A stretch of DNA of 64,000 bases, from the IMG/VR virus record IMGVR_UViG_2595698395_000001, positions 8,370 to 72,369 of that record. One strand, 5' to 3'. The notes under the pieces were generated by a model, which saw nothing but the letters and a program-made list of their open reading frames with translations, did no database searches and was not told where the DNA came from. Numbering within the stretch: the first letter of the stretch is position 1; each line of letters opens with the position of its first letter. Shown piece after piece: positions 1-55,088 of the stretch. The translations under genes were made by a program, and so were the position numbers. The stretch is from a virus (taxonomy: Duplodnaviria > Caudoviricetes).

Positions 1-1725
1 TACTTTATCTTCTATTTGAGATACTTTAGCGATTGTAAAACTCTGAGCAACAAACTCTTGTTTCTCAATATCTGCTATAAGTTGCGCTAATTTCGATTCC
101 TCTTTAGATAGTTCCTCTACTCTTTTTTCAATTTCTGCAATTTGATTTTTCTTTGAAAGTAAATCGTTTACTACTTGCAAATCATTTTGAATAGCTGTTT
201 TTTGAGCTTTCAAATCAGAAATATCTACAGTTTTAGCTTCTTCTAGTGTAGATTCAAGAGTAGCAATAGTCTTAATGTTTGTTTGGTACTCTTTGTGAGT
301 AGAAAGAATTTTTGCTGCATCCGCTTCTGGATTTACAGGATTAACACTTTCTTTTTCACTCTCTTTTTTTAATTCCTCCTTAAGAGATTCTAATTCTTTT
401 TTGGTCTCTGAAATAAGTTTTTCTCCATCTAAAATTCTCTTTGAAGTTTCGGAAACCCTAGATTCTAAAGTTTCTTTTCTTAACTTATTAGCTTGTCCGT
501 TTGTATTTATGCTTAATAATGTATGGTTTTTTTCTTCCTTAAAATCAAGAAGCATCTTTTCTTTTTTAGACTCAGCATCAATTGAGTCTAAAGGCCTTTT
601 ACAGCTAGGGCAGTTAATGTTTTCTTCGTCGAATTTAAGAGACTTAGCGTTTTCTATATCAAAATCTTTTCTTAATTTAGAAAGAGTGTTTTCTATTTCA
701 ATTATAGAGTTTATGTCTTTTTGTTTTTCGTAAATATAATCAGAAACTCCTTTTGCATACTTTTCTAAAGTATTCTCCTTTGCTGAAATTTTTGCATTTA
801 ATAAAGAGATAGGATCCTCTAGTTGCCCTGCTAATGAATTAACCTTTTTCTTAACCTCGAACTCAATGTTCTGATTCTTAGTCTTTAAAGCGAATACTTC
901 GTTAGATACTTCGTTTCTTTTTGCGTTGGCAATCTCTACAGTTTTGTTTTTGTCCTCTATTTTAGAGTCTATTTCTGAAATTTTTGCTTCCAACTCAACT
1001 TTTTTACCTTCTGCTTCTTTAAAATCAATTCCCTCTGGCTTGCTTTTAATCTGCTCGTCAATCCTAGTTGGAATAGATTCTATAGATTTTTTGTGAAGTA
1101 AACGTGTTGCAGCAAGTTCTTTTTTATATTCGTCCAGGTCTTTACCTACTAATTTGGATAGTAAGGCCTCAAATTCTTTGTTTCCTGCAGCAATTTCTAA
1201 ATTAGATACATTACCTGCAATTGAAATTAAAAGTTCTCTCTGCTTCTCCCAGTGAAGTGCGTTAAAAGCTAAAGGATCTGAAATCATCTTGAAAATTAGT
1301 TCATCAAGTATGTTGCTTATTTTTTCTTCATACTCCTTTTTTGACTTCGGAACGTTGTTGTAGAAATACTTTGTAACATTTCCCTCAAAAACAGTTTCTA
1401 ATGCACCCTTCTTTTTGGTCCATTTCTCGGATAAAATTCTGGTAAGTGTAATCTCTTCTCCATCTACATCTAAAATAGCCTTAACGCTGTGATCTAATTT
1501 TGGAATAGCTACATTATTTTCATCTAATGTTTTGATTGTAGATTTAGAGTCCGATTCTCCAATCATATTTTTACCAAAAAATAACCAAGAGAATGCGTCT
1601 CCAATGGTGGATTTTCCAGTACCATTGTCACCAAAAATACTTGTGATGTGGTTGAAGTCGATATTAACTTCTTTTGCTCCTTTAAAGTAACGGAGTTCTA
1701 ATCGCTTTAATTCAATGTGTTTCAT
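1..1725 (-). CDS. SMC/SbcC(Rad50)-like AAA ATPase with coiled coil, runs off the window's left edge
   Basis: Not in the ORF track. Manual translation from ATG at 1725 gives MKHIELKRLELRYFKGAKEVNIDFNHITSIFGDNGTGKST (Walker A), a long coiled coil and a CPSC zinc-hook-like motif near 600. Confidence 0.85.
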   Translation of the reverse strand, partial: MKHIELKRLELRYFKGAKEVNIDFNHITSIFGDNGTGKSTIGDAFSWLFFGKNMIGESDSKSTIKTLDENNVAIPKLDHSVKAILDVDGEEITLTRILSEKWTKKKGALETVFEGNVTKYFYNNVPKSKKEYEEKISNILDELIFKMISDPLAFNALHWEKQRELLISIAGNVSNLEIAAGNKEFEALLSKLVGKDLDEYKKELAATRLLHKKSIESIPTRIDEQIKSKPEGIDFKEAEGKKVELEAKISEIDSKIEDKNKTVEIANAKRNEVSNEVFALKTKNQNIEFEVKKKVNSLAGQLEDPISLLNAKISAKENTLEKYAKGVSDYIYEKQKDINSIIEIENTLSKLRKDFDIENAKSLKFDEENINCPSCKRPLDSIDAESKKEKMLLDFKEEKNHTLLSINTNGQANKLRKETLESRVSETSKRILDGEKLISETKKELESLKEELKKESEKESVNPVNPEADAAKILSTHKEYQTNIKTIATLESTLEEAKTVDISDLKAQKTAIQNDLQVVNDLLSKKNQIAEIEKRVEELSKEESKLAQLIADIEKQEFVAQSFTIAKVSQIEDKV

Positions 1726-2011: not shown

Positions 2012-2680
2012 TTAGTTCTTTATTGTGTAAATTATGTTTTGTTCTTTTGCTTGTATTACTGGCATTAAAATTAATTCTGAGGGGCCAATCTTAAATAATA
2101 CAGGGCTAGATGGTTCTAATATTTCTGAAACCTCAATTAAGTCAATGTTTAAAGAATCGCATATAGCTTTAAGTTCTAATATTCTGGAGAAACTCAACCT
2201 AGTTGATTTGATGTCTATATAAGAATTTTCGTCAAAAATTTTGCGTCCTGATTTTGTTCTTTTAGATTTAGGAATATTTCCTTCTCCTTCGCAAACAGGG
2301 CAATCAAAATCTCTACAGTGTCCTTTAAATTCCCATTCAACTTCTCCGCTGCCTTCACATTCTTTGCATTCTCCATCTGTATTTGTCTCTATATATTCAT
2401 CCACAGTAGGTATCATCTTTTCTATGTCTGATAAAACACTGTACTTTATATTAAAAGAACTAATGAATTTTTCTTTAAAAAAAGATGGACACTTACGGAT
2501 AAGAGAATCGTCTTCCTGAACTTTATACCCATCGACCATATACTTGGGAACTCTAAGCATTGCACATGCATTTGTTGAATAAATATAAAGACCTATAGCG
2601 AATGGTTTATGAAATAAAGGTCTATATAAATCTGTTCCAGACACACTTTCAAGCGCTTTTTTGATGTTTTCTGTTTTCAT
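2012..2680 (-). CDS. Phage protein with DnaJ-type CxxCxGxG zinc finger
   Basis: CKECEGSG and CPVCEGEG motifs. Confidence 0.65.
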   Translation of the reverse strand: MKTENIKKALESVSGTDLYRPLFHKPFAIGLYIYSTNACAMLRVPKYMVDGYKVQEDDSLIRKCPSFFKEKFISSFNIKYSVLSDIEKMIPTVDEYIETNTDGECKECEGSGEVEWEFKGHCRDFDCPVCEGEGNIPKSKRTKSGRKIFDENSYIDIKSTRLSFSRILELKAICDSLNIDLIEVSEILEPSSPVLFKIGPSELILMPVIQAKEQNIIYTIKN

Positions 2681-3565: not shown

Positions 3566-3904
3566 ATGAATAAGCAGAAAGAAAACAAAGAAACAGAAAC
3601 TAAGCATAAACTAAGTAATGTGTTATCTCGTTTGCATGATGTTGGTGCTCATTTCAGGCTTGAAGACTATGAAGATGAATTTGTTTTATCAATAATTGAT
3701 AGAGGCATTTATCCTAGAATTTGGTCGGATAATTTTGCAGATAATCAGGTAGTTATTATTGCTGAAACGGATGATAACTTAATTAACAGAAACACCATTC
3801 ATTCTAAAGATTGGAAGGAAAGGTGGTATGGCGAAACTTTAGATGAAGTACTTTATGAAGCTTATGAATGGTTATCATCTTTAAATATCGAAAAAACAAC
3901 ATAA
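3566..3904 (+). CDS. Hypothetical protein, possible decayed distal cassette
   Basis: ORF track; in-frame GAT-GTT-GGT (LHDVG) at 3641 resembles the cassette junction peptide. Confidence 0.6.
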   Translation: MNKQKENKETETKHKLSNVLSRLHDVGAHFRLEDYEDEFVLSIIDRGIYPRIWSDNFADNQVVIIAETDDNLINRNTIHSKDWKERWYGETLDEVLYEAYEWLSSLNIEKTT

Positions 3905-3917
3905 AAACAAATGAATT

Positions 3918-4259
3918 ATGATAACAGAAAATGATATTAAGATAGTAGAAGCTATTAAAAAGGAAATTGACAAAAAGGCAACGACCAATGAAAATACAAT
4001 AGATTGGGAAGCAGTACAAAAGATTGAAGTACTCGATAGATTAGTAAATAATTTACGTATAGCCAATGTTAGCTACTGTGTCGTTTCTGATGAAGATAAA
4101 GCCAATAATTACTATACTGCAGAATGTGGTAAGTGCGATTGGTGGGGAAGCTCTAAGCTATTAGAGGGCGGTGGATCAATAGCTGATACAGGTGATTATT
4201 TTGACTGCTCTTGCCCTGTGTGTGGAAATGATGATGTAGGTGAAAGGCATTGTAGCTAA
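3918..4259 (+). CDS. Cassette protein: helical N-module plus C-terminal Cys zinc-ribbon
   Basis: Junction peptide LRIANV|SYC at GTT 4068; CGKC...CSCPVC; the stop TAA lies within GTAGCTAAC. Confidence 0.7.
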   Translation: MITENDIKIVEAIKKEIDKKATTNENTIDWEAVQKIEVLDRLVNNLRIANVSYCVVSDEDKANNYYTAECGKCDWWGSSKLLEGGGSIADTGDYFDCSCPVCGNDDVGERHCS

Positions 4260-4319
4260 CGGTTTGTGTATGATTTCGGGCGTGAATTAAGCTAAATATT
4301 AATAGATAAAAACAAAATT

Positions 4320-4487
4320 ATGAGTAAGTATAAACCAGAAATAGACGAAAACAAACCTTTTGATTTTGAAACAAACTTTGTTGTTTGTCAATGTGAGGAA
4401 TCAGACATATCTGATAGACATTTGGGTGATGCAGGGTATGATTGGTGCAAAAATTGCAAAAGGCCATTAGCAGTTATTGATTATTAA
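4320..4487 (+). CDS. Cassette protein, 55 aa, Cys zinc-ribbon
   Basis: Manual ORF MSKYKPEID...CQC...WCKNCKRPLAVIDY. Confidence 0.6.
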   Translation: MSKYKPEIDENKPFDFETNFVVCQCEESDISDRHLGDAGYDWCKNCKRPLAVIDY

Positions 4488-4491
4488 TGAT

Positions 4492-4613
4492 AACGCTTGC
4501 AGGTATGTTTAGTGCCTGATTAAATAGTATAAATTTTTAAAATACAGATAACGATGAAAAAAGAACAGAACTTGAATAATGCAGAAACACAGGCATTAAA
4601 TATACCTGTTGTT
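4492..4613 (+). repeat. attC-like hairpin enclosing the start of ORF 4554
   Basis: AAC-gcttg-CAGGTATGTTTAGTGCCTG ... CAGGCATTAAATATACCTG-tt-GTT. Confidence 0.8.
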
Positions 4614-4859
4614 ATGTCCCGTTTTGATATTGAGCGTAAGGATTTGTATGAATATGACAAACCAAAAGAACGCACAAGAAAACGACTTACTGAAATGTCT
4701 GAATGTGGTATGGAAGAAACAGGTATTGCTTCATTTGGTTATAATGGCATAATGAGTGGTTTGTATATCGAAAAAGTGTGGGGATATTCTGATGAAGATT
4801 TCAAAGATTATATGGATTGGGCGAAAGGTTTAATTGCAGCTTCCTTAAATGGGGCATAA
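4554..4859 (+). CDS. Cassette protein, hypothetical
   Basis: Junction ALNIPVV|MSR; ends GTTATGTCCCGTTT / AAATGGGGCATAAC. Confidence 0.7.
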   Translation: MKKEQNLNNAETQALNIPVVMSRFDIERKDLYEYDKPKERTRKRLTEMSECGMEETGIASFGYNGIMSGLYIEKVWGYSDEDFKDYMDWAKGLIAASLNGA

Positions 4860-4904
4860 CGGTGATAGGTATGGTTAGAAAATTTAACGATTAAATAAAA
4901 CGAA

Positions 4905-5192
4905 ATGAAAACGCCAGAAGAAATATTAAATGAAGTTGCTACTGAAAATATGATAAATATACAGCAAATGGTAACAACTAAACAATTAGCAATAATTGCA
5001 ATGAGAAGATACGCCAAATTATACCACGAAAGTAAGGTTAAAAATTTGGATATACAACGTGTTAGCCAACAACGTGAACTGTTAAAGTTTTTTTCTTCTC
5101 AATTAAGCGAGAACCTTGATATAGATGTAGGAATGAATTATATAACAGAAGAAGATATTGAAGAATGCCTAAAAAACTTTAATTGCGGGTAA
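4905..5192 (+). CDS. Cassette protein, hypothetical
   Basis: Junction LDIQRV|SQQRELL; stop lies within GGGTAAC. Confidence 0.65.
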   Translation: MKTPEEILNEVATENMINIQQMVTTKQLAIIAMRRYAKLYHESKVKNLDIQRVSQQRELLKFFSSQLSENLDIDVGMNYITEEDIEECLKNFNCG

Positions 5193-5242
5193 CAATGCTA
5201 TATAGCTAACTACACAAACTAATTGAATTAAAACAATAAATT

Positions 5243-5467
5243 ATGATTAAAGAAAACAGTAACCAAGAAAGCAAAAGCAATGAACTTTATATATTGTTAC
5301 CTACTGTAGAAAATACGGACAAAGAAGAACTAAACTTAATTAACAGTCTAAAAGAATATATAGATTGGTATGGTTGCAGAGATAGTAAAATGGATAAAAT
5401 ACTGCCAATAGAACAACAAGAAGGAATTGTAGTAACAGCAATGACTTTATTAAAAGAACTAACGTAG
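5243..5467 (+). CDS. Cassette protein, hypothetical
   Basis: Junction LYILL|PT; ends GTTACCTACTGTA / TATTGTTGGTAAC. Confidence 0.6.
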   Translation: MIKENSNQESKSNELYILLPTVENTDKEELNLINSLKEYIDWYGCRDSKMDKILPIEQQEGIVVTAMTLLKELT

Positions 5468-5484
5468 TATTTTATATTGTTGGT

Positions 5485-5607
5485 AACATATTTGGGTATG
5501 GAAAGTACGAGTAAATAAACAGTAATTTTTAGTAAAACACAAAATAAAGTAAATATGAAATTAAATAGAAATAGTAAGATAAGTAAGTATTTTTTATACC
5601 CGTTGTT
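5485..5607 (+). repeat. attC-like hairpin enclosing the start of ORF 5555
   Basis: AAC-atattt-GGGTATGGAAAGTAC ... GTATTTTTTATACCC-gtt-GTT. Confidence 0.8.
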
Positions 5608-5770
5608 ATATGTAGTGCTTACAATACCTTTTGCGCTTTTTGCAATATTGTACTACAGCTCTAAAATAACACGAAGTTTAAGTTATCTATGCGTTTTTAA
5701 AATAGAAAGCGCAAAGCAAGAAATCACAGACTTTTGGAGCATAGAAACAGCTTTGGGAGATGTATTTTAA
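5555..5770 (+). CDS. Cassette protein, small membrane protein
   Basis: Hydrophobic FLYPLLYVVLTIPFALFAILYY; ends GTTATATGTAGTG / CATTACATATAAC. Confidence 0.6.
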   Translation: MKLNRNSKISKYFLYPLLYVVLTIPFALFAILYYSSKITRSLSYLCVFKIESAKQEITDFWSIETALGDVF

Positions 5771-5832
5771 CATTACATATAACGTTAAAATATATGGCTA
5801 GTTGCGGAATTAATAACTTAAAATAACAAGTA

Positions 5833-6177
5833 ATGACAGAATTAGACAAAAAGATTAAGGATTTAAAAGACTTTATTAAACAGAAAACAGACCAAGGAAC
5901 TGCAAACTACTTAGGTAAAGAAATACGAGAAATTTGCGGAATGGTAGAAACTGAGCAATTAAATAAAGAGAAAAACAAACTTACCTCTAAAAATGAAGCA
6001 CTTAACCAGCAATTAATTTTATCTGGTGTTAGCGGTAGTAATTTACTACCTGATGGATGGAAGGTTTATGAATGTACTGACTGCCAAGAGATAAATGTAA
6101 AAAAAGATAATAGACAAATAACCGTTGGATTATGTGATAACTGTGAACATCCATTATGGAATGATGATGTTGATTAG
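5833..6177 (+). CDS. Cassette protein: coiled N-module plus CxxC..CxxC zinc ribbon
   Basis: Junction LILSGV|SGS; CTDC and CDNC; ends GTTAGCGGTAGTA / TATTACCGCTAAC. Confidence 0.7.
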   Translation: MTELDKKIKDLKDFIKQKTDQGTANYLGKEIREICGMVETEQLNKEKNKLTSKNEALNQQLILSGVSGSNLLPDGWKVYECTDCQEINVKKDNRQITVGLCDNCEHPLWNDDVD

Positions 6178-6237
6178 TATTACCGCTAACGGTTAGTTGT
6201 ATGGCTTGTTGCCGAATAATCACAAAACAAAATAAAG

Positions 6238-6549
6238 ATGAACATATACGAATTTAGTTATTCTGGAGGCGAAACCGATTGGGTTTTTGCACCAAACATT
6301 AAAGAGGCAAAAGATTTCTATTTAAAATTTACAGGTTGTGGCGACTTAACATTAACTACGGTTAAAAGAGTGCCTAAAAGTAAATGGAATGAAATGTACT
6401 TATTAGACCCAAATTATAGTGAGCCAGATGAGGACGAAGAAGATTATAATGAAGAAGATTATTCTTGTGGGTTAAAAATTATAGAAACTTTTGCAGAGTA
6501 TGCAGAAAGAAATACTATTACTGATATGATAGCAACAACCGAGTATTAA
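6238..6549 (+). CDS. Cassette protein, acidic hypothetical
   Basis: ORF track; lies between left arms at 6188 and 6554. Confidence 0.7.
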   Translation: MNIYEFSYSGGETDWVFAPNIKEAKDFYLKFTGCGDLTLTTVKRVPKSKWNEMYLLDPNYSEPDEDEEDYNEEDYSCGLKIIETFAEYAERNTITDMIATTEY

Positions 6550-6553
6550 TGGT

Positions 6554-6644
6554 AACGGCTCTGGGCTATGATTTCGTGCCTATATAATGACGGAACATTG
6601 AATTAAGCACCAATCTAACAAGGGTATGAATTATAGCCCTTGTT
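6554..6644 (+). repeat. attC-like hairpin with non-coding loop
   Basis: AAC-ggctct-GGGCTATGATTTCGTGCC ... GGTATGAATTATAGCCC-tt-GTT. Confidence 0.85.
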
Positions 6645-6659
6645 GTAAATAGTAAAATT

Positions 6660-6812
6660 ATGGCAAAGTATAAGATTGAAATTAACCAAACTTGGAGTGA
6701 AGAAGTAATTGTAAATGCAAAGAACGCAACCGAAGCAAAGAAATTAGCTTGGGAAAAGTGGAAAGCTAAAAAAAGTAACTATAATTTATTTGTGGAGAAA
6801 GAACCTGAATAA
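6660..6812 (+). CDS. Cassette protein, 50 aa
   Basis: Manual ORF MAKYKIEINQTWSEEVIVNAKNATEAKKLAW...; flanks GTTGTAAATAGTAAAATTA / TAATTTTATTGTTTACAAC (17/19 complementary). Confidence 0.7.
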   Translation: MAKYKIEINQTWSEEVIVNAKNATEAKKLAWEKWKAKKSNYNLFVEKEPE

Positions 6813-6825
6813 TTTTATTGTTTAC

Positions 6826-7020
6826 AACGAAAATAGATATGAATTGATTTTTAAACGAATAAATAAGATGAAAATAAAAGAAGCAATACAAGTATTAAAA
6901 GACCATAATATATGGCGAAAAGGTGAAAATGAAGAAGTGCAAATGACAGACCCTAAAAAATTAGGAGTTGCCATTGATACAGTAGTAAATAAGTTTGAAA
7001 ATTTGTTTATATCTGATGTT
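6826..7020 (+). repeat. attC-like hairpin with a ~150-nt coding loop
   Basis: AAC-gaaaat-AGATATGAATTGATTTTTAAAC ... GTTTGAAAATTTGTTTATATCT-gat-GTT. Confidence 0.75.
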
Positions 7021-7185
7021 ACCCAATGTGAAGCCACAAAGACAACAAATAAAATCGAAGAAATACAGGTTTCTGTAGATAAAAAACTATTTGTTGAGTT
7101 ATATAACTTTGCTTATAAAAAAGCAGTAAAAACAAATACAGTAGCAGAATTACACGATATTGATAGAAGGCTTCATGGTGGGTAA
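6868..7185 (+). CDS. Cassette protein, two modules (probable start MKIKEAIQ at 6868 rather than 6790)
   Basis: Junction LFISDV|TQCEA; ends GTTACCCAATGTGAAGCC / GGCTTCATGGTGGGTAAC. Confidence 0.7.
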   Translation: MKIKEAIQVLKDHNIWRKGENEEVQMTDPKKLGVAIDTVVNKFENLFISDVTQCEATKTTNKIEEIQVSVDKKLFVELYNFAYKKAVKTNTVAELHDIDRRLHGG

Positions 7186-7230
7186 CGCTAAGTATATGAG
7201 CCGTTTTTTCTATGGCTTATATACATTGTT
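7184..7230 (+). repeat. Minimal 47-bp attC-like hairpin
   Basis: AAC-gctaa-GTATATGAGCCGT-tttttct-ATGGCTTATATAC-att-GTT. Confidence 0.85.
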
Positions 7231-7261
7231 ACCTGTTGTACGGATTAATTAAAAATGGAAT

Positions 7262-7990
7262 ATGAAAAGAAACGAAATATATTTAGGGGATTGTTTAGAA
7301 TTAATGCCTAAACACGTAGAAGATAAAAGTATTGATATGATTTTTTGCGATTTGCCTTATGGAACTACACAATGCAAATGGGATAGTATTATTGATTTAG
7401 ATAAGTTGTGGAACGAATACAGAAGAGTAATAAAAGATAATGGTGTAATAGTTCTTTTTGCTTCTCAGCCATTTACAAGTATATTGACAAGTAGTAATTT
7501 AAAGATGTTTAAATACTCTTACACTTGGGATAAGATAACCAAAACAAACCACTTAAATGCTAAAAAGCAACCATTAAGACAAGTTGAAGATATTTGTGTA
7601 TTCTACAAAAAACAACCGACTTACAAGCCACAAGGATTGATTGAATGTGAAGTTTCTAATTTTAGACCAAATCATTTTAAATATAAAAAAGGTGAAAAGG
7701 TTTATGGAGAGCAAAAAGAACATGGTAACAAAAGCACTTATACAAACTATCCAAGTAACCTAATACAATACAGTAACGGGAATCATAATAGTTTGCACCC
7801 TACACAAAAGCCTTTAGATTTAATTGAGTATATGATAAAGACGTACACCAACGAAGGAGATTTAATACTTGATAATACTTGCGGAAGTGGAACAACGGGA
7901 TTAGGAGCAAAAAATCTTGGACGAAACTTTATTATGATGGAGCAAGACCCTAAATACTATGATGTAGCTTGCAAAAGAGTACTAACGTAG
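7262..7990 (+). CDS. Site-specific DNA methyltransferase (N6-A/N4-C, beta class) carried as a cassette
   Basis: DLPYG catalytic motif, HPTQKP, DNTCGSGTTG SAM-binding motif; flanks GTTACCTGTTGTAC / GTATTGCAGGTAAC. Confidence 0.9.
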   Translation: MKRNEIYLGDCLELMPKHVEDKSIDMIFCDLPYGTTQCKWDSIIDLDKLWNEYRRVIKDNGVIVLFASQPFTSILTSSNLKMFKYSYTWDKITKTNHLNAKKQPLRQVEDICVFYKKQPTYKPQGLIECEVSNFRPNHFKYKKGEKVYGEQKEHGNKSTYTNYPSNLIQYSNGNHNSLHPTQKPLDLIEYMIKTYTNEGDLILDNTCGSGTTGLGAKNLGRNFIMMEQDPKYYDVACKRVLT

Positions 7991-8036
7991 TATTGCAGGT
8001 AACAATGTTATATAACTAATTCAAAAAACTGAATCT

Positions 8037-8273
8037 ATGGAAACTACTGCAAAACAAGTGACTTTAAATATAATAGATGGTAAATTTACATCTTTAGAAT
8101 TGCAAAATTTACTTCAATTAATTGCACAAGAGTTGAAATTACAAACTACATCCAATTATGCTAAAGAAAACAAACTATCTTTTAATGGAGTTAAAAACTT
8201 TAGGCCTCATATTTTAATTGATGGAATCAAATTTCATTCAGACGGAATTATAGAAAATAGCTTACCTTTTTAA
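8037..8273 (+). CDS. Hypothetical protein, possibly DNA-binding
   Basis: 78-aa ORF immediately upstream of the integrase. Confidence 0.55.
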   Translation: METTAKQVTLNIIDGKFTSLELQNLLQLIAQELKLQTTSNYAKENKLSFNGVKNFRPHILIDGIKFHSDGIIENSLPF

Positions 8274-8291: not shown

Positions 8292-9578
8292 ATGGCAACA
8301 ATAAGACTAGTAACAAGAAGCAAGAAAAACCCTTGCAATTTAAACATTCGATTTTCTGCAGGAAGGGAGAACAACTTCTACTTGCCTACAAAAGTCTTTG
8401 TTAATCCAAACCATTGGGATAATAAAAAATCGAACTACAAAAACTCTAGCGAAATAGAAGATAGAATGATTAAAGCGGCTAAATTTGAACGCTTAAAATC
8501 TGATATTTTAAACGAGTATAACACTGCTTATATGAATGGCGAAGTTACCGATCCTCAATGGCTAGAAGAAGTTGTTAAGGACCTGTTTGATCGTCCAGAA
8601 AAAGAGAAAGGAAACAAAGTTCGTGAGCATTTTGTGTACTACTTGGATTTTTGTGAGTATTGGTTGAAGGAAATTGCACCGACCTGGAAGACAGAAAAGA
8701 ATAAATTCATGTCAAAAAGAGCAATTCAACAGTACGACACCTTCGTATTGGCCTTTAAAAATTTTCAAAACAGTTCTACAGGAAGGAGATATCGTATAAA
8801 AGATGTAAATAGTGTTGTTTTAAACGATTTCTCGACTTATCTGTGTGACGAATCTAAGTTTGCCCCTACGACATCGAAACGTTTAGTAGGTCGCGTTAAA
8901 TTCTTTTTAAACAGAGCAGAGAAGACCGGAATAAAAACAGATCCAAGCTTTAAAGAACGAGTTTATGTATCTAAAGAGGAAGGAGATATTTTGGTTCCGT
9001 ATCTTAACGAAGAGGAAATTAGTAGAATTTTCAATTTAAACCTGGAGCACGATCATATTTTAGATAACATCCGGGATAGTTTTATAATTAGTTTGTGGTC
9101 GGGTCTTAGAATTTCGGATTTCAATAATAACCTGAAGGCCGATAACATAGAAGGAGATTATATTAGTATAAAAACAAATAAGACTGGTAGTTGGGTGACA
9201 ATTCCACTTCATAACCAAGTTAAATTCGTGCTTAGTAAGCGTTTTGGTAATTTGCCAGCTAAATTTAGTGACAAGCTTTTTAATAAGCACATCAAAACAA
9301 TATGCATGCTTGCCGAAATTGACGAAGATATTAAAGGGAAGTTATTCGATAAAGAAACGAAGCGCAAACTTACGGGTATCTATCCAAAGTATAAATTAAT
9401 TAGTTCGCACTCTGGACGTCGAAGTTTTGCCAGTAACCTCCATGGCTTCGTGCCTAATCACATACTTTCGGATCTTGGTGGTTGGTCCAGTGAAAAAATG
9501 ATGCTTCACTATGTTAAACGAACAAAAAAAGAAAGTGCAGAAATTTTAAAAAACATTTGGGATGAAAAATATAAATAG
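8292..9578 (+). CDS. int: Tyrosine recombinase/integrase of Bacteroidota phage/transposon type (arm-binding N-domain, SAM-like and catalytic domains)
   Basis: SGLRISD (R), KT, SSHSGRRSFA (HxxR), LGGW...HY (catalytic Tyr). Confidence 0.92.
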   Translation: MATIRLVTRSKKNPCNLNIRFSAGRENNFYLPTKVFVNPNHWDNKKSNYKNSSEIEDRMIKAAKFERLKSDILNEYNTAYMNGEVTDPQWLEEVVKDLFDRPEKEKGNKVREHFVYYLDFCEYWLKEIAPTWKTEKNKFMSKRAIQQYDTFVLAFKNFQNSSTGRRYRIKDVNSVVLNDFSTYLCDESKFAPTTSKRLVGRVKFFLNRAEKTGIKTDPSFKERVYVSKEEGDILVPYLNEEEISRIFNLNLEHDHILDNIRDSFIISLWSGLRISDFNNNLKADNIEGDYISIKTNKTGSWVTIPLHNQVKFVLSKRFGNLPAKFSDKLFNKHIKTICMLAEIDEDIKGKLFDKETKRKLTGIYPKYKLISSHSGRRSFASNLHGFVPNHILSDLGGWSSEKMMLHYVKRTKKESAEILKNIWDEKYK

Positions 9579-11881: not shown

Positions 11882-12448
11882 TTATATACTTCTAAAGTAA
11901 TGGCCGTTACTCTCTGAATAGTCATACATTAAGTCCCTTGCTGCTCTTTCCCAGTCAATACAATTGTGAGGCCATGAATTTGATATTTCAACGCCTGTTT
12001 GTTCTGCTAAATCTTCTGCAAAATCTTCATCGCTATTGTATTGACCTGAATAACTATCCTCTAATGCATCAAAAAATTCGTCTATATCATTAATGTCATA
12101 GCTTCCTAGTTCTGCGAATGCTTCTACAATATCAGCATCATAAAAACAATTATCTAACCTATCAAAGTATTCAAATAATTTTTCAAAATCCATACTTTCA
12201 GAATAAAAAGCCTTTGGGAAATCCTCAAAATCTGTTATCATTGTTTCTTCTCTTGGACTGTCTAACGGACTTTTTTCGTCGCACTCTTGGAAGTGGTTTA
12301 AAATATACTCGTTCAATTCTTCTGCATCGCTAAATTGGTCTAACTCTACCCAGTGCCCAAACTCGAATTGTGTCCCATTGTTATAGCTTGCATAATCAGT
12401 TAAAAATATTCTTCCCTTTGTTGCTGTACTTGTTGTTGCTGTTGTCAT
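11882..12448 (-). CDS. ardA: Antirestriction protein ArdA (DNA mimic)
   Basis: Highly acidic; IFLTDYASYNNG..GHWVEL, ITDFE, YSGQYNSDEDFA, IDWERAARDLMYDY..NGHYF. Confidence 0.88.
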   Translation of the reverse strand: MTTATTSTATKGRIFLTDYASYNNGTQFEFGHWVELDQFSDAEELNEYILNHFQECDEKSPLDSPREETMITDFEDFPKAFYSESMDFEKLFEYFDRLDNCFYDADIVEAFAELGSYDINDIDEFFDALEDSYSGQYNSDEDFAEDLAEQTGVEISNSWPHNCIDWERAARDLMYDYSESNGHYFRSI

Positions 12449-54888: not shown

Positions 54889-55016
54889 AATTAGCTAGTC
54901 TTTCCTAGCAGTCATATTGACCTATCCCTTAAGCTATTAATCTCGACTAGCGAGGGGGATTCGAACCCCATTTAGATACCAATTCTCAATAAACGAGCAG
55001 AATCGAACTGCATTAG

Positions 55017-55088
55017 AGTTGTTGGTGAGATTCGAACTCACGATATTAGTTTTGCAGACTAACCTCTTAACCACTTGAGTACAACAAC
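55017..55088 (-). tRNA. trnC: tRNA-Cys (GCA), CCA not encoded
   Basis: GTTGTTG/CAACAAC acceptor, TTAGT-CTGCAAA-ACTAA anticodon arm, GTGAG-TTCGAAT-CTCAC T-arm, U discriminator; TAAATTTG promoter at 55149-55156 on the minus strand. Confidence 0.9.

Follow-up and report, generated by a model that had tools for sequence, protein, structure and literature searches.

The stretch of DNA analysed here, which we call the window, comprises 64000 nucleotides (nt), i.e. bases 8370-72369 of a 72.4-kilobase (kb) virus record (IMG/VR record IMGVR_UViG_2595698395_000001). Its closest relatives are the Cellulophaga phages phi19:3, phi18:3 and phi46:3 (Pachyviridae), with an identity of 88-99% in the sequences that flank the array described in the present study. 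This array is a row of small sense-strand open reading frames (ORFs) that has a divergent control region on one side and a tyrosine recombinase gene on the other, and all of the ORFs read towards the conserved flank and the recombinase. ORF 7262-7990 is the only one with a clear family (N6/N4 DNA methylase, E = 1.7e-32), and the remaining ORFs either have no known function or match only PHROGs of unknown function. The array contains 11 AAC junctions of the type YAAC (4260, 4494, 4860, 5193, 5487, 5783, 6190, 6556, 6828, 7186 and 8003) and nine GTT sites of the type GTTR (4068, 4611, 5061, 5296, 5605, 6028, 6642, 7018 and 7228). We consider it likely, with a probability of roughly 0.8, that the region from 3.9 to 8.0 kb is made up of about eleven mobile gene cassettes and represents an integron-like system common to Bacteroidota and their phages. 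An earlier note on this DNA, made from its letters alone, had already called the array integron-like, a reading supported by the controls, the breakpoints, the covariation of arm with arm and the folding of the sense strand presented below.

The ends of individual units were examined by pairing the nucleotides that follow a GTT with those that precede the AAC of the same unit. All four of the arm pairs named in the earlier note were found in the sequence: GTTAGCTAC (4068) pairs with GTAGCTAAC (end 4260) at nine of nine positions, GTTAGCGGTAGTA (6028) with TATTACCGCTAAC (end 6190) through 12 Watson-Crick pairs and one G.T pair of 13, the 19-20-nt arms at 6642 and 6828 through 18 Watson-Crick and two G.T pairs of 20, and GTTACCTG (7228) with CAGGTAAC (end 8003) at eight of eight positions, or 12 of 12 when read outward. 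In total, a complementary arm that starts at a GTT and scores at least 8 lies 160-250 nt upstream of seven of the 11 AAC ends and, with the partner arm of the methyltransferase unit, which lies 775 nt upstream, eight of the 11 units are paired end to end. As a positional control we used the 314 other TAAC sites between 12 and 64 kb of the window, none of which reached a score of 8 (maximum 7), and the summed end-complementarity score of the array was 82, compared with 40.7 ± 4.5 for shuffled sequence, with none of 1000 shuffles reaching 82. These data clearly show that the unit-specific end pairing proposed previously, which involves the 9-20 nt after the GTT and the nucleotides before the unit's own AAC, is present in eight of the 11 units and in none of the 314 controls; equal complementarity in shuffled controls had been named as a possible refutation, but neither the shuffled nor the positional controls matched it. 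The same end complementarity was found in phi46:3, phi18:3 and phi19:3, in the Polaribacter phages Freya and P12002L and in arrays on bacterial chromosomes. A looser half-site pattern matched the window 23 times, with 17 of these matches inside 4272-8014 (shuffled sequence gave 15 ± 4 per 64 kb), and this clustering, together with the control results, indicates that the sites belong to the array and do not reflect a genome-wide signal. The rigid motif TAAC-N9-TATG, with five matches compared with 3.35 expected, was rejected as too rigid and anchored tests were used instead. Folds of whole units were excluded as evidence because their terminal stems close by construction and their z-scores are modest.

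An alignment of the sites of four phages gave a consensus for each type. The GTT site consists of (T)TATA(C/T), 5-6 nt, GTT(A/G), five variable bases and (A/T)GT, and the AAC site of ATT, five variable bases, (T/C)AAC, 7-8 nt and TAT(G/A); the two layouts coincide when the AAC site is reverse-complemented. On the sense strand a junction runs, in order, x'-YAAC, 5-6 nt, a stem arm of 11-20 bp, a loop of 5-235 nt, the other arm, 2-3 nt and GTTR-x. The stems formed by the end arms (n = 16) contain 218 Watson-Crick pairs, 17 G.T pairs, no A.C pairs and 11 other mismatches, and 13 of the 17 G.T pairs occupy one conserved position, position 11. In addition, there is a second pairing, between the approximately 22 nt after an AAC and the approximately 22 nt before the next GTT, which was assessed in 23 AAC..GTT gaps from the window, phi46:3, phi18:3, phi19:3, Freya and P12002L. 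The duplex formed by a junction's own arms has a mean energy of -15.5 kcal/mol, compared with -6.0 ± 2.6 kcal/mol for arms taken from different junctions, and none of 20000 permutations reached this mean; 17 of the gaps had a more stable duplex than any non-own pairing, two outperformed 98% of such pairings and four are weak. The hairpin arms thus covary with each other within each junction. The 19 good gaps have stems of 11-20 pairs and loops of 5-235 nt, and their unpaired spacer measures 2-7 nt after the AAC (median 5) and 0-4 nt before the GTT (median 2). The description of each gap as an imperfect hairpin with an asymmetric spacer therefore agrees with our data, strong stems being present in five of the eight window gaps as well as in 19 of 23 overall. 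In 18 of these 19 hairpins the sense strand was the more stable one (-20.9 compared with -12.8 kcal/mol), the hairpins having been preselected by sense-strand energy; this stability and the excess of G.T over A.C mismatches suggest that what folds is a single strand, identical in sequence to the mRNA.

The hairpins also overlap with the genes. In six of the eight window gaps the next ORF starts between the AAC and the GTT and, where a gap has both a strong stem and a gene start, the start lies in the loop and the GTT falls 14-65 codons into the ORF. In 14 ORFs across the phages the GTT is read in frame 0 in 11 cases and in frame 2 in three; as frame 1 is disfavoured by the TAG or TAA in GTTAG and GTTAA, a test against one third would overstate the bias and the fair contrast is 11 to 3. 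That the GTT is read in two frames indicates a nucleic-acid signal tolerated by the proteins rather than a protein motif, and the frame-0 sites encode a recurring L-x-I-x-x-V-S peptide. At the other end of the unit, the TAA of TAAC serves as the stop codon in four of the 11 window units, as had been noticed for several of them previously, and in six of 20 units counted across phages.

We then compared the window with its close relatives, and found that the four Cellulophaga phages have almost no cassettes in common between their similar flanks. The conserved right flank starts exactly after an AAC in all four phages, behind four different cassettes. The cassette at 4495-4860 is 99% identical in phi19:3 (locus L002, 7251-7621) and is bounded there by AAC on both sides, but it stands after, not before, the cassettes shared with window 5230-5869 and hence at another place in the array. 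The tally of breakpoints comprises 14 junction ends at AAC, which span three phage families, one at GTT, three or four at ATG and one that is blurred. Gene order is therefore not kept among relatives and breakpoints fall at AAC or GTT, the opposite of the outcome that had been named as refuting the cassette reading. Comparison of the aligned genomes shows that phages gain, lose and rearrange cassettes with the AAC triplet as the exact breakpoint. The earlier proposal that the phage acquires and shuffles small genes is thus upheld as far as the breakpoints are concerned, whereas its further step, recombination through single-strand hairpins, would be an interpretation of the site structure.

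Sharing of cassettes extends to other phage families. The window ORF 5243-5467 has a counterpart in phi10:1 (Assiduviridae) with 84% identity, in which both sites are present and the homology stops at the AAC. With Polaribacter phage Freya (Forsetiviridae) the window has 91.5% identity over 6833-7020, a stretch that covers the junction hairpin and the first 50 codons of ORF 6868-7185, with a compensatory double change in one stem pair, and the two phages diverge upstream of that AAC and downstream of that GTT. Since the leader is shared up to the GTT and the bodies are different, the window ORF and the Freya ORF (L010, 4036-4437) are chimeras joined at GTT, and the alignment shows, for at least this one case, an exchange at GTT that placed the common leader in front of another gene body. 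The array of Freya lies directly upstream of a 271-amino-acid integrase gene, and five Freya isolates that are 99.9-100% identical elsewhere differ in this array only by AAC-to-AAC blocks. Four different cassettes precede the Freya flank beside the integrase gene, the flank always beginning right after an AAC; Freya_8 lacks exactly one AAC-to-AAC block of 902 nt, and Freya_1, Freya_2, Freya_5 and Freya_10 form a nested series, a pattern that fits either serial entry of cassettes at the flank or deletions anchored there. Polaribacter phage P12002L has the same type of site, the arm words GTTACCTG, GTTAGGCAC and GTTGGCAGT, and a homologous methyltransferase cassette with the same 775-nt span as that of the window. 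The arm words and the genes between them are found in different combinations: GTTACCTG flanks the methyltransferase gene in the window (7228/8003) and a small ORF in P12002L (L022, 2465/2681), and GTTAGGCAC flanks a 60-amino-acid ORF in phi18:3 (L004, 8086/8283) and the methyltransferase gene in P12002L (L022, 4948/5722). In addition, seven and five AAC-type half-site matches respectively were seen in the Assiduviridae phages phi19:1 (L012, 3437-6292) and phi10:1 (L009, 2623-6270), which have no tyrosine recombinase and may carry cassettes too. If such a system exists, it would explain the small accessory genes common to the unrelated Pachyviridae, Forsetiviridae, Assiduviridae and Incheonvirus.

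The units of the array, all on the + strand, differ in how completely they show these features. The cassette body at 4068-4260 has the arms GTTAGCTAC and GTAGCTAAC given above, with its GTT at codon 51 of ORF 3918-4259 and its stop codon in the TAAC. The next unit (4261-4494), with ORF 4320-4487 (55 amino acids), ends in TGATAAC and lacks a good partner arm upstream, having instead a local palindrome of 22 nt. It is followed by the AAC-to-AAC cassette 4495-4860, which consists of a junction hairpin (4495-4610, 20 pairs, -32 kcal/mol), whose loop holds the start of ORF 4554-4859, and the body 4611-4860. The unit 4861-5193, with ORF 4905-5192, has a GTT with the usual flank at 5061, an arm that mismatches the AAC end and a weak junction stem (-4.7 kcal/mol), and is possibly a hybrid or decayed unit. 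The unit 5194-5487, with ORF 5243-5467 and arms at 5296 and 5487, is common to phi19:3 and phi10:1 (84% identity), and in the cassette 5488-5783 the junction hairpin (5488-5604, 16 pairs, -20.1 kcal/mol) again holds a gene start in its loop, that of ORF 5555-5770, with the body at 5605-5783. The unit 5784-6190, with ORF 5833-6177, has its GTT (6028) at codon 66, the arms GTTAGCGGTAGTA and TATTACCGCTAAC and a weak junction stem, and the unit 6191-6556, with ORF 6238-6549, ends in TGGTAAC; its GTT partner was not found. The cassette 6557-6828 begins with a compact junction hairpin (6557-6641, 18 pairs, -26.7 kcal/mol) without a gene start, and its body, 6642-6828, encloses the whole of ORF 6660-6812 between 20-nt arms. 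In the cassette 6829-7186 the hairpin and leader (6829-7017) supply the first 50 codons shared with Freya, and the body 7018-7186 differs from that of Freya. Finally, the cassette 7187-8003 has a compact 41-nt junction hairpin (7187-7227, 13 pairs, spacers of 5 and 3 nt) and a body, 7228-8003, in which the N6/N4 DNA methyltransferase gene lies between CATTGTTACCTG and CAGGTAACAATG. Hairpin units of 60 nt without an ORF between GTT and AAC were also seen in related loci (L003, 4510-4569 and 5252-5314; L010, 5236-5296; L013, 3733-3793), and these may be empty cassettes or bare sites.

Elsewhere in the window, an ArdA anti-restriction protein is encoded in the leftward early region (11882-12448, - strand, Pfam E = 6e-20), which, together with the methyltransferase cassette, points to anti-defence cargo. 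Window 2012-2680 (- strand) encodes a protein of 222 amino acids whose match to an Anti-TRAP/DnaJ-type zinc finger falls short of the Pfam cut-off, window 1-1725 (- strand) an AAA_23 (SbcC-like) ATPase, which lies upstream of RecT in relatives, and a tRNA-Cys(gca) gene is located among the late genes (55016-55088, - strand).

Downstream of the last AAC, the flank at 8004-8036 (+ strand) is conserved in all four related phages and is a candidate entry site, attI-like in its position; a search for further relatives with a 31-nt pattern from this flank gave no matches. It is followed on the same strand by a 78-amino-acid ORF (8037-8273; phrog_18952, unknown function), which is 100% identical in the four phages while neighbouring genes differ by up to 12%. 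The fold model of this ORF (predicted local distance difference test, pLDDT, 85.3) has three helices and a beta hairpin, and its best Foldseek match in the PDB was not significant (E = 1.1), with winged-helix repressors among the weak rows. Homologues with 59-74% identity were found in metagenomes, on contigs of up to 72 kb, and none in an alignment-based scan of IMG/VR. A metagenome scan for more relatives returned a copy of phi18:3 (L005, 99.985%) and two distant integrases without arrays. The tyrosine recombinase gene (8292-9578, + strand, 428 amino acids, Phage_integrase and Phage_int_SAM_5 domains) begins 289 nt after the last AAC and is the only PF00589 gene in the genome. The earlier note was correct that the window has no IntI, but it overlooked this recombinase just downstream of the array. 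The protein did not match the integron-integrase models at E values of up to 0.1, matched XerD weakly (29.5 bits), and had no sequence match in the PDB and no relative in IMG/VR. Its closest cellular homologue (44% identity) is on a 3.7-kb contig of a metagenome-assembled Bacteroidetes genome.

The integrase of Freya is of a different kind, being Xer/XerA-like with a Phage_int_SAM_4 domain; VchIntIA is among its solved relatives, it lacks the IntI insertion and it scores 96.5 bits on TIGR02249 (cut-off 265). Homologues of this integrase are present in 62 of 401 sampled Bacteroidota genomes at E values of up to 1e-30, and at eight of the 14 Bacteroidota loci examined there are at least two strong AAC..GTT hairpins 3' of the recombinase gene. 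These chromosomal loci, which lie beside an Xer/XerA-like gene (L045, 863-8567; also L038, L039, L040, L043, L046, L048 and L050), have hairpins of approximately 118 nt with spacers of 5 and 1 nt, and one of them has eleven in 8 kb. The chromosomal sites also show cassette-specific end complementarity and share arm words with the phages, including GTTGGCAGTAGT and GTTAGCGGTAGT, and the filter used for them, at -18 kcal/mol, matches the window only inside the array. On the integron-integrase model, with its cut-off of 265, the neighbouring chromosomal recombinases reach 203-212 bits, the match being split in two and leaving out the central part of the model; on NF040815 (cut-off 220) they reach 216-228 bits.

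Several observations weigh against the reading of the region as mobile cassettes. The units ending at 4494, 5193 and 6556, i.e. three of the 11, have no good partner arm, and four of the 23 gaps have no strong stem. In all four Cellulophaga phages the conserved left flank stops precisely at the start codon, ATG, of the first ORF in the array (window 3349; L002, 6016; L003, 3969; L004, 5318), for which the hairpin model gives no explanation, and in an ORF common to phi19:3 and phi18:3 the homology likewise begins at the ATG and not at AAC or GTT; the blurred breakpoint in the tally is the junction after 5783. The sense-strand bias, quite apart from the preselection of the hairpins, fits RNA structure equally well. 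In Logan contigs from two DNA and two RNA sequencing runs that cover a phi18:3-like locus, we saw no joint at any site, although contigs cannot show rare forms, and no excised circle, deletion joint or inversion, although parts that are uncovered or free of joints prove nothing. One of the DNA runs is phi18:3 itself (on L005), and the runs contain at most 0.17 of the words of the window stretch. With regard to the enzyme, the 44% homologue (L008, 1-216) lies 133 nt from a tRNA-Leu(gag) gene, which is where ordinary integrases, at the end of an integrated element, are usually found. The window recombinase is unrelated to the Freya integrase (BLASTP E = 0.59), and P12002L, phi10:1, phi19:1 and Gundel have no PF00589 gene at all. 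The 428-amino-acid protein may be only the integrase of the phage.

Some of these points would suit an alternative in which the hairpins are RNA elements of early transcripts, acting in RNase III-type processing, as stabilizing stems or in translational control, with selection keeping whole expression units. This would account for the better folding of the strand that has the mRNA sequence and for mismatches that are of the G.U type (17) and never A.C, and contigs from the RNA libraries do span the whole phi18:3 array. The RNase III sites of phage T7 have a similar form, with two helices split by an asymmetric internal loop. However, selection on expression units would be expected to blur the breakpoints, whereas the 14 junction ends fall on the same triplet in three phage families and the differences between Freya isolates, elsewhere 100% identical, are exact AAC-to-AAC blocks, and this exactness argues for DNA rather than RNA. 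The same sites, moreover, stand in rows beside chromosomal recombinase genes, and a search of Rfam found no family that matches the hairpins at E values of up to 1. In addition, the main text of Qi et al. 2023 (PMC9892861) reports that, of six predicted attC sites from three virulent phages, five, including P12002L_attC2, were recombined into attI1 by IntI1 and are thus DNA substrates. We therefore regard a purely RNA-based explanation as unlikely, and an RNA role may be additional to DNA recombination.

Somewhat less likely again is the shuffling of genes by general homologous recombination between repeated modules of a promoter and a stem-loop (PeSL), which Arbiol et al. 2010 (PMC2839356) reported for T4-type phages together with mini-circles. 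The layout of the array, with small ORFs of unknown function each behind a structured intergenic module in a hypervariable early region, is similar, the phages encode RecT, and the ATG breakpoints would fit exchange through short homology. The junctions, though, share only YAAC, GTTR and a few bases; as the arms of different junctions do not match (-6.0 compared with -15.5 kcal/mol for a junction's own arms), there is almost no homology on which it could act, and the partners at a breakpoint have only the AAC in common. We also considered invertible segments like those of shufflons, in which each pair of arms would flip the body between them to give alternative C-termini. Inverted repeats with a pair-specific core do flank the 3' parts of genes beside a tyrosine recombinase gene, but the cassettes shared between phages are all in one orientation. 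This reading was rejected, as flipping the bodies in silico left the frame open in only two of 11 ORFs, with products that look like nonsense, and we regard it as highly improbable.

Returning to the cassette reading, the covariation of the arms and the better folding of the sense strand fit recognition of a folded single strand. In integrons, IntI acts on folded attC. By a comparable route, a tyrosine recombinase would act on the folded sense strand of the array, with strand exchange in the AAC or next to it, and new cassettes would enter at the conserved flank beside the recombinase gene. It is possible, though in our view somewhat less likely than not, that the acting enzyme is the phage's own 428-amino-acid recombinase; another candidate is a short Xer-like recombinase supplied in trans, by the host or by a co-infecting phage. 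Taken further, the findings raise the prospect, which we put forward tentatively and at slightly less than even odds, that Bacteroidota and their phages share a form of gene capture independent of IntI, in which folded sense-strand sites are used by short Xer-like or other tyrosine recombinases, exchange at GTT builds in-frame chimeras of leader and body, and phages trade anti-defence genes, for example the methyltransferase cassette, through their arrays across viral families and host genera. Such chimeras would be expected from the position of gene starts within the sites and from the GTT mostly being in frame as a codon, and the system would then provide a natural mechanism for shuffling protein halves. 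The array suggests that the logic of integrons, i.e. folded-strand sites, cassette-specific ends and entry on the recombinase side, operates in marine Flavobacteria and their phages without IntI, and such a system would largely escape surveys of the IntegronFinder type that require IntI. Tractable models are at hand in the ten Freya isolates, whose differences are confined to cassettes, and in phi18:3, which is cultured and has published transcriptomes.

A phage array of this kind has been published before. In a screen of 10705 phage genomes, Qi et al. 2023 (PMC9892861) found 17 attC clusters without an integrase (CALINs), among them that of P12002L with two methyltransferase cassettes; the P12002L array shares the type of site, arm words and the span of a methyltransferase cassette with ours. 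The main text of that paper names no Cellulophaga phage, and in those of its passages covered here, including section 3.4, there is nothing on adjacency to a recombinase, natural cassette polymorphism, gene starts in sites, chimeras, sense-strand bias or chromosomal counterparts in Bacteroidota with non-IntI recombinases. Our literature searches, which covered papers without their supplements, found no account of this Bacteroidota variant; the main text of the Freya paper (PMC8776804) has no occurrence of hairpin, cassette, inverted repeat or variable region, and Cury et al. 2016 (PMC4889954) has none of Bacteroid-. Like the PeSL modules (PMC2839356), the junctions are structured intergenic modules next to small accessory genes; they lie in a hyperplastic early region and are the places at which relatives differ. 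Unlike the PeSL modules, which are sequence repeats and recombine by homology, they differ in sequence, keep their structure and break at one triplet. Shufflons (Rci, sfx) resemble the array in that both could use tyrosine-recombinase sites within genes to combine a constant N-terminus with variable C-termini, but shufflons invert their segments, whereas the units of the array are deleted, inserted and reordered, and inversion would close most of their frames.

The closest comparison is with integrons, the textbook bacterial gene-capture device, which is defined by IntI. The array shares several features with integrons: it is a one-directional row of mostly single-gene cassettes; its junctions fold into imperfect hairpins that combine an AAC/GTT box, an unpaired spacer and a second stem, with structure conserved while sequence varies; cassettes begin with a sequence complementary to the box close to their own end; and gain and loss occur exactly at a conserved triplet, with the variation lying beside a tyrosine recombinase gene. 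Unlike integrons, the array has neither IntI nor the IntI-specific insertion, and none of its 11 AAC sites fits RYYYAAC and none of its nine GTT sites fits GTTRRRY, with only YAAC and GTTR being kept. Its spacers, of 5-6 nt after the AAC and 2-3 nt before the GTT, also set it apart, and its genes point towards the recombinase end, whereas integron ORFs read away from attI. On these grounds the array behaves as an integron would, yet it falls outside the integron family, which is delimited by IntI and the attC consensus. The system differs from integrons in three ways: it has another site consensus; it is the coding strand that folds better, whereas integrons recombine the bottom strand; and gene starts lie inside the sites, in loops of up to 235 nt, which places the GTT within ORFs.

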